Positions 1,476 through 2,550 of a stretch of 41,736 nucleotides of DNA are shown here, piece after piece (the first letter of the stretch is position 1; every line of letters starts with the position of its first letter). The position numbers were made by a program, and so were the translations under genes. The DNA comes from a virus (taxonomy: Duplodnaviria > Heunggongvirae > Uroviricota > Caudoviricetes), in IMG/VR virus record IMGVR_UViG_2529292910_000010, positions 1 through 41,736 of that record. The stretch is one strand, 5' to 3'. The notes under the pieces were generated by a model. The model was not told the origin of the DNA, made no database searches, and saw only the letters and a list, made by a program, of their open reading frames with translations.

Positions 1476-1925
1476 CTATGATATGCGCTGAAATAATCCT
1501 GCCTGTCTGATACCCGGAGATGATGTCCATAGCATCGGACCACATGCACGCCACGTGCCCGGTAAACGGGTCTCCCCCACATTACCGGAAGCAACCAGGG
1601 GAGTACCATTCGAAAGGCAACATGCAGACAGTGATGAGCCGGCAATGGCTGAGCCCGGTGCCATATCCCCCGAATAACTCGTCGCATAATATGCCGCAAG
1701 GACAAAAGAACCGACACCAAACAGTCCGCTGTCAGGACTTCCTGACGGTCCCTGAGGTCCTGCCGGACCTGTGTCTCCCGTATCTCCCTTCGGTCCCTGT
1801 GGTCCTGCCGGGCCTGTGTCTCCCGTATCTCCCTTCGGTCCCTGTGGCCCTGCCGGGCCTGTGTCTCCCGTATCTCCCTTCGGTCCCTGCGGACCTGCCG
1901 GGCCTGTGTCTCCCGTAGCACTGTT
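1476..1925 (-). pseudogene. side tail fibre (Stf) C-terminal remnant with collagen-like Gly-X-Y repeats
   Basis: minus-strand frame reads ...[31 protein letters not shown]...[13 protein letters not shown]... to stop at 1476; the frame opens only at a TGA just upstream of the junction, so it has no start of its own. Confidence 0.6.
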
Positions 1926-2550
1926 TCACATCGATGATTTCGGTGTATGACGACCACAGCGTCTTATTCTGCAGCTGGTCCGTGGTGCTGTCCGCCGTCT
2001 CCCTGACCATCCGGATGTTAAAGGGCCGGGGAGGCAGATTATCCAGAATCACCGAGGCCAGGAACTGTGAGGTGGTCTTGCCGTTAATGGTGACGTCCTT
2101 TTCCGTCACCCAGCGGCCATTACGCTGTAACTGAATCAGAATCCGGACAGAGGAAGGATTACGGTCGCCCTTTGACGTGGTCTGCACCAGTGACTGCACC
2201 CCGAAGGTAACCCGCAGGCGGTCAATGTTCGCGGACGTAATGGTGCGCGTCACCGGTTTTGCCTTCGTCACTTCCACGCCCAGTCCGGTTTCAGCTCCGG
2301 AGGACTCAAAGCCTTCCGGTGGTGTCTGCTCCTGCTCCCCGGCACGCCAGACCGCGGTCACACCGTGTATCACGGGATTACCGTCCGTGTCCGTCAGCGG
2401 GGTTTTGTTCACCAGGATACTCTGCAGTCCCTTCACCGGACCTTCTATCGGTCCCTCACCAATCGCATCAATCACACTCATCATCTGCGTGGATTTGAGA
2501 TTATCCTTCGCCTCACGAGGCGTGTGTGCCTTACCGCCACCTTTTCCCAT
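1732..2550 (-). pseudogene. J: tail tip/host specificity protein J, N-terminal ~206 aa only, running out of frame into the stf repeat
   Basis: MGKGGGKAHTPREAKDNLKST...[18 protein letters not shown] matches the lambda J N-terminus as recalled; after VKQCY the frame reads Arg-rich nonsense (GRHRPGR repeats) through the collagen repeat DNA to a stop at 1732. Confidence 0.85.
1759..1920. repeat. 45-bp tandem repeat, about 3.6 copies, coding the collagen-like motif
   Basis: unit tcctgccgg(g/a)cctgtgtctcccgtatctcccttcggtccctgtgg repeated head to tail. Confidence 0.9.

Follow-up and report, generated by a model that had tools for sequence, protein, structure and literature searches.

Evidence for an internal deletion scar between J and stf in the yecD/yecE lambdoid prophage of Escherichia coli DEC6D and DEC6E

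The lambdoid prophage at the yecD/yecE site of E. coli DEC6D/DEC6E very probably carries a real internal deletion scar in its tail module. Codon 212 of the host-specificity gene J would have been joined to a boundary between units of the 45-bp collagen repeat in the side tail fibre gene stf, with the removal of approximately 4.3 kb, and the resulting fusion would run +1 out of frame into a stop after 60 codons. An earlier note on this DNA had described an out-of-frame fusion of the J N-terminus to the stf collagen-like repeat, and the open reading frame, together with its alignment to gpJ and Stf, bears this out. When compared with the domains of functional homologues, the J fragment falls short of a functional gpJ and the stf remnant of a functional fibre; each is a pseudogene fragment of the family concerned.

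Organisation of the prophage

The window, i.e., the whole stretch of 41,736 bp that was analysed (IMG/VR record IMGVR_UViG_2529292910_000010), comprises an entire lambdoid prophage with the gene order int … cI-like … Q … lysis … Nu1/A … portal … capsid … tail … J … stf … dinI. At one end, a dinI-like gene (1–249) and ykgJ (385–717) adjoin yecD-aspS-nudB-yebC-ruvCAB. At the other end, the gene for a 436-aa integrase (40426–41736) abuts yecE-yecN-cmoA-cmoB in many genomes, and the insertion site lies between yecD and yecE. Seventeen morphogenetic genes (I, K, L, M, H, T, G, V, U, Z, FII, FI, E, D, C, B, and W) are full length and free of stops, sharing 91–100% amino acid identity with those of a related prophage (L005, NZ_AP045820.1), and the lysis genes are intact. 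The lambda-like gene order and the integrase at a chromosomal site, found together with lesions in J, Nu1, and the large terminase gene, place the element among the defective lambdoid prophages.

As judged from its sequence relatives, the prophage appears to be a typical lambdoid mosaic whose ancestor had a canonical J-lom-stf block. Contigs encoding an identical gpK (L009, L011, L013, L014, and others) match the window at approximately 99% identity as far as the junction, and they encode a 1157-aa J, a 199-aa Lom, and a Stf of 404–519 aa. In the same-site prophage of E. coli HUSEC2011, yecD, dinI, ykgJ, DUF4376, stf, lom, and J are all present. The coordinates of the features discussed below are collected in Table 1.

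Table 1. Features at the two lesions of the prophage and in their surroundings (positions in the window).
Feature	Position	Strand	Evidence
DUF4376 gene, 223 aa, intact; usually located after stf, with overlap of the stf 3′-end	859..1530	-	Pfam DUF4376, 6.5e-17; same arrangement in L002, L014, and L023
stf 3′ remnant (residues 259–404 of 404) and stop	1476..1914	-	Identity to L002 Stf; lacks a start and the N-terminal attachment domain
Out-of-frame collagen-repeat read-through, 60 codons and TGA	1732..1914	-	Translation; Arg codon usage
45-bp tandem repeat, 3.8 copies	1746..1917		TRF; Pfam Collagen
Deletion junction, 3-bp exact microhomology TAC	1915..1917	-	Three-way alignment of the window with both L002 sides
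J′ 5′ remnant, codons 1–212	1915..2550	-	Identity to gpJ of NZ_CP145714.1; Pfam
I–J intergenic region, 343 bp, unaffected by the deletion	2551..2893		Same gap in intact L002 and L005
Nu1 (approximately residues 1–134 of 181) out of frame to large terminase (317–641 of 641)	15779..17148, junction ~16747–16756	-	L005 alignment; Pfam; tblastn coverage

Compared with the intact 109-aa gene, ykgJ at the dinI end has two frameshifts that compensate each other, such that approximately 50 internal codons are out of frame while a 110-aa ORF stays open. The frameshift sites are a T5 run reduced to T4 near position 430 and a run of ten C at 572–581, which has one extra C. The DEC6 drafts disagree exactly at this C-run (10 vs. 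9), and part of the difference may be homopolymer sequencing error. In HUSEC2011, the annotation of the prophage at this site likewise gives ykgJ as frameshifted.

The J-stf junction

The main comparator was a prophage of E. coli S1-CAM-01-A (NZ_CP145714.1; L002), whose J is annotated as “phage attachment tail tip protein J” and in which the genes follow in the order ykgJ, DUF4376, stf, lom, J, I, K, L, M, and H. In blastn, the window aligned with it in two collinear blocks, 385–1917 with L002 8609–10139 (98.3% identity) and 1901–6572 with L002 14470–19139 (98.7%). The blocks are separated by a single gap of 4345 bp, a value that, like the count of lost repeat units, is relative to L002 as a proxy and not to the true ancestor. 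The gap takes in J codons 213–1157, the whole gene for the 199-aa Ail/Lom protein, and stf codons 1–258. The earlier note, which had held that most of J and the 5′ part of stf are gone, had proposed alignment to lambda J and to the Stf/Tfa of related prophages as a check; the single gap agrees with its view and adds the loss of lom, which that account had missed.

In the three-way alignment, the junction falls on the trinucleotide TAC. The junction described earlier is thus real, although its position is that given in Table 1 and not near 1925–1935. At this point J reads AAA CAG TGC TAC/CCG AAC ACG GCC and the stf repeat reads GGA GAT AC/G GGA GAC ACA GGC C (the slash marks the breakpoint), while the window has CAG TGC TAC GGG AGA CAC AGG CC. 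The 17-bp overlap between the two blastn blocks reflects gapped extension, and TAC comprises the sole exact shared bases in register. Since 4345 mod 3 = 1, the reading frame is shifted. TAC makes up one complete codon in J and is split over two in stf (GA-T AC-G), and because its codon phase differs between the two genes, the frame offset is built into the junction and is independent of homopolymer calls.

In a simulation that joined J to the L002 collagen region at random breakpoints, at least 3 bp of microhomology occurred in 6.5% of cases (p ~0.065). The imperfect similarity beside TAC (CCGA-ACAC-GGCC vs. GGGAGACACAGGCC), which amounts to 13/17 with gaps, was equalled or exceeded in 4.8% of simulations. 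The use of microhomology at the junction is plausible, with weak statistical support (p ~0.05–0.07). The event itself could have been RecA-independent short-homology (illegitimate) recombination, or replication slippage, at TAC. Neither an IS element nor a mobile insertion is found at the junction, where the two sides directly abut, and an Rfam scan of the window and the I–J intergenic region returned nothing at or beside it.

Homologous recombination via the 45-bp repeat was also considered and is rejected, as J holds no copy of the repeat and offers just TAC and the imperfect 13/17 match. Because J is without the 45-bp unit, the repeats did not act as a homologous substrate but as the target, i.e., the site of one breakpoint. 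The suggestion that they either mediated the rearrangement or were its target therefore survives in its second half only.

This arrangement is most economically explained by a simple deletion within one prophage. The mosaic identity of the prophage could instead be read as the trace of two lambdoid elements, a yecD-site remnant (stf-DUF4376-ykgJ-dinI) and an incoming or tandem int…J prophage, brought together by illegitimate recombination with the loss of more than 4.3 kb. Identity to the HUSEC2011 prophage is 99.6% over window positions 1–492 on the dinI side and 94.8% on the stf side, and drops to 78–79% in J and the tail genes, which are nevertheless 99% identical to potB-site prophages. 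Mosaicism through homologous exchange is, however, normal in lambdoid prophages and may predate the deletion. Both halves are held in canonical order, within one genome, by L002 and by L014 at 98–99% identity, and the integrase and dinI ends flank yecD/yecE as those of one prophage should. An origin from two elements is accordingly considered quite unlikely, and a deletion within one prophage is preferred.

Upstream of the J remnant, the I–J intergenic region follows a gpI that is 100% identical to that of L005. On its plus strand (antisense to the late genes), the region contains a strong promoter-like TTCACA-16-TATAAT element (11/12) at 2756–2783 and a terminator-like hairpin with a T-run at 2862–2878. 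Going by these motifs, the pair could specify a small antisense or moron transcript. The gap has no Rfam match, and the published sRNAs in the literature examined were placed elsewhere.

Coding capacity of the J and stf remnants

The fused ORF (2550..1732, minus strand) encodes 272 aa, begins MGKGGGKAHTPREAKDNLKST in translation, and keeps the native J start codon. Its residues 1–212 are identical to residues 1–212 of the 1157-aa gpJ of L002 at 208 of 212 positions (98%). The N-terminus of J had thus been recognised correctly as truncated, at a length of approximately 206 residues that alignment to the full-length protein corrects to 212. After DVKQCY, the ORF passes into 60 wrong-frame codons of the 45-bp repeat and ends at a TGA stop (1732–1734), which confirms the wrong-frame run through the repeat noted before. 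Approximately 82% of gpJ (residues 213–1157) is thereby lost, and an Arg-rich out-of-frame tail of 60 residues stands in its place.

The sole Pfam domain in the fused ORF is FNIII-A_GpJ (PF24801; residues 86–207, 1.1e-41). The Pfam domains Phage-tail_3, Ig_J, Phage_Tail_Tip, and Ig_GpJ_C are absent from the 272-aa ORF and are all present in the 1157-aa comparator, which has two Ig_J domains and a C-terminal receptor-binding domain. As a member of the gpJ/TipJ family, the fragment therefore retains the FNIII-A N-terminal region and lacks the hub (Phage-tail_3), the Ig_J domains, the tip fibre, and the receptor-binding domain. The DNA for these parts of J is missing from the window.

The repeat behind the out-of-frame tail has a period of 45 bp with 96% matches (TRF score 309). 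In the correct frame, each copy encodes a 15-residue unit, and the Pfam Collagen domain is detected (PF01391, 2.8e-09). This Gly-X-Y frame, which is +1 with respect to that of J, is open from 1925 to the stop at 1476–1478, its upstream edge being a TGA at 1926–1928. Its translation is identical at 143 of 146 positions (98%) to residues 259–404 of the 404-aa Stf of L002, a protein annotated as “prophage tail fiber N-terminal domain-containing protein,” and consists of the collagen part followed by a 90-residue non-collagen C-terminus, which has no above-threshold Pfam match. No ATG, GTG, or TTG occurs in the Gly-X-Y frame before the ATG at 1664, which is past the collagen domain. The Gly-X-Y frame and the Stf C-terminus had been described as intact and startless, and on both counts the alignment and the position of the first start agree. 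In the intact Stf, phage_tail_N (PF08400) occupies residues 1–134 and is missing from the remnant, which starts at the equivalent of residue 259. Of the features of Stf/EPcl proteins, the remnant thus has the Gly-X-Y domain and the conserved C-terminal domain, and is without the PfN attachment domain and a start codon at the head of the frame.

All 16 Arg codons in the wrong-frame tail are AGA or AGG (seven AGA and nine AGG, with no CGN), compared with 1 of 12 in the J part. Exclusively rare Arg codons are what a non-coding frame would be expected to show. The 272-aa product is perhaps made, and would probably be poorly translated and non-functional.

The same codons could be taken as a sign of a functional chimera, in which +1 ribosomal frameshifting at GGG-AGA sites with their rare AGA codons would link J(1–212) to the collagen domain and the Stf C-terminus. 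Hungry AGA/AGG codons promote +1 shifts, the Gly-X-Y frame does lie +1 from that of J, and the wrong-frame stretch (1732–1914, minus strand) holds seven in-frame GGG-AGA sites along with its 16 rare AGA/AGG codons. Nevertheless, the prophage's own tRNA-Arg(UCU) would ease a shortage of that very tRNA, and J residues 1–212 lack the hub domains needed for tail-tip assembly. The junction is also not conserved, being confined to one clonal group, and the prophage is without a working terminase. Such a chimera is regarded as extremely unlikely, and the two fragments are treated here as the remains of a deletion.

Distribution and authenticity of the junction

A megablast search with positions 1400–2700 found the junction in 0 of 5,426 complete E. 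coli genomes, and an exact 35-mer across it had no hits in GTDB representative genomes, JGI metagenomes, or IMG/VR. The exact 272-aa product is encoded on two draft contigs, AIFY01000034.1 and AIFZ01000025.1, whose proteins are named as coming from E. coli DEC6D and DEC6E. Both contigs are part of the DECA collection of E. coli (PMC3558956). Over 12.55 kb, the window matches the AIFZ contig at 100% identity, and the AIFY contig differs by three 1-bp gaps, all in homopolymers; because of these three gaps, the two are independent assemblies. The junction is also carried by a Logan contig (L016; SRA run SRR094136), a separate k-mer assembly that ends 55 bp into the repeat. The deletion event is private to the DEC6D/E lineage, with support from one clonal group.

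An assembly artefact would require that a J copy was mis-joined to an stf copy across the repeat, while full-length J, lom, and stf exist at the locus. Several lambdoid prophages with similar J and stf are probably present in the genome. The J side is, however, non-repeat and shares just 3 bp exactly, and overlap and k-mer assemblers need junction-spanning reads to make such a join. The drafts contain homopolymer discrepancies, of which the ykgJ C-run is one example, and the junction is seen in no complete genome, yet it is identical in two separate drafts and in a third, independent assembly from Logan. Repeat collapse, for its part, alters copy number in 45-bp in-frame steps and cannot remove 4.3 kb of unique DNA. 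A mis-join is thus considered very improbable, and the caveat of mis-assembly raised with the first description of the junction is largely answered by the two independent drafts, the Logan re-assembly, and the mere 3 bp of exact sharing.

A second deletion in the packaging genes

A further, independent lesion joins Nu1 to the large terminase gene (Table 1). Relative to L005, 1076 bp are missing, with window position 16753 corresponding to L005 23198 and position 16747 to L005 24268. As 1076 mod 3 = 2, this deletion is also frameshifting. Pfam detects positions 1–133 of 164 of Phage_Nu1 and just the GpA_nuclease domain in the fusion. The C-terminus of Nu1 and the N-terminal half of the large terminase, the site of the ATPase, have been lost. 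No genome was found with one of the two deletions but not the other, and each fused product is confined to the same pair of DEC6 contigs. The intactness of the other head, tail, and lysis genes suggests that both deletions, and hence the inactivation of the prophage, are recent.

Further features of the prophage

Downstream of the Q region, a minus-strand cluster at 23152–23667 comprises the sRNA STnc100 (140 bits), tRNA-Arg(UCU), tRNA-Arg(UCG), and a tRNA with a CAU anticodon. The last is called Met by ARAGORN, and the homologous gene in a relative is annotated as tRNA-Ile. Between this cluster and Q lies a cargo segment (23696–26411) that is absent from the closest intact relatives. It contains the gene for an AraC-family regulator (237 aa, minus strand) and, on the opposite strand, genes for a 237-aa DUF6731 protein and for a protein of 147 aa whose sequence resembles that of a membrane protein. 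The cargo genes (23699–26408) have no PADLOC match.

At 20968–22929, the prophage encodes a 653-aa DUF1737-SASA-DUF6645 esterase, presumably of the NanS-p type, that is 63% identical to the esterase of L005. As L005 is otherwise 96–99% identical, this points to a local mosaic replacement. Rfam matches to the C4 antisense RNA (75 bits) and isrK (62 bits) at 32285–32470 lie inside or just upstream of a 381-aa ORF (31685–32830), the C-terminal part of which we take to be antirepressor-like. The arrangement of C4/isrK and this ORF would suggest a P1/P7-type immunity module in a lambdoid early region.

Discussion

As the hub, central fibre, and receptor-binding domain all come from gpJ, none of these should be producible from the prophage, and a tail tip should not be buildable. 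The earlier conclusion that the tail tip and receptor-binding apparatus cannot be made is therefore sound, and is reinforced by the second deletion in the terminase genes. Lom would likewise not be producible, and a side tail fibre would not be formed because the collagen and C-terminal part has neither a start codon nor an N-terminal attachment domain. With the two lesions, the prophage alone would be unable to package DNA or to make adsorbing tails. From its remaining gene content, the element might still excise, replicate, and lyse its host, and it might be complemented by, or recombine with, co-resident prophages.

The J remnant resembles lambda gpJ in that its first 212 residues, including FNIII-A, are a close homologue (98% identity to the J of a related prophage) with the same start and the same position after gene I. 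Unlike lambda gpJ, it is without residues 213–1157 and thus without the hub, Ig-like, tip-fibre, and receptor-binding domains. Hendrix and Duda are said to have reported in 1992 that lambda PaPa lost its side tail fibres via a frameshift in stf. The present prophage is comparable in having lost its side tail fibres through a frameshifting stf lesion. Lambda PaPa has kept J and is infectious, whereas here J is truncated and lom is lost, leaving no tail tip.

The collagen-like tail fibres EPclA-D of EHEC have a PfN-Col-C-terminal architecture, in which the length of Col varies by multiples of three residues (Ghosh et al., 2012, PMC3368898). Like EPclA-D and lambda Stf, the stf remnant has a Gly-X-Y domain followed by a C-terminal globular domain, and in the canonical order it follows J and lom and precedes a small accessory gene. 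In contrast to these proteins, PfN (phage_tail_N), most of Col, and the start codon have been deleted, and 146 C-terminal codons are left.

Deletions, frameshifts, and IS insertions in late genes have been documented in the lambdoid prophages Sp1–Sp18 of O157:H7 Sakai (Asadulghani et al., 2009, PMC2669165). Complementation of defective Sakai prophages by co-resident prophages, or recombination with them, has also been shown (PMC2669165). The present prophage shares with Sp1–Sp18 a lambda-like gene order, a chromosomal site, and inactivated morphogenesis or packaging genes alongside mostly intact others, Sp4 of Sakai having a disrupted nu1. It differs from them in that its lesions are a pair of clean internal deletions, at microhomologies that are short or imperfect, and not IS insertions, and in its occurrence at the yecD/yecE site of DEC6D/E strains.

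The joint loss of adsorption (J-lom-stf) and packaging (nu1-A) genes, with every other late gene intact, might reflect selection for a domesticated, non-infectious, still-lytic element. This possibility, the +1 frameshift chimera, and a role of collagen repeats as deletion hotspots in prophage tail modules are, even when taken jointly, given very little probability. Defective lambdoid prophages of this kind are well known; the present one appears to have been inactivated recently, and its lesions represent ordinary prophage decay, which is already known.

The 272-aa ORF has been deposited as a “putative host specificity protein” or “prophage tail component”; it is due a J pseudogene label, and the stf remnant should likewise be labelled as a pseudogene. 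The junction provides a clean, datable case of prophage decay by short-homology deletion and raises no new biological question. Because of its two lesions, the prophage should be scored as defective, and in a multi-prophage strain it is a potential recombination partner or helper-dependent element.
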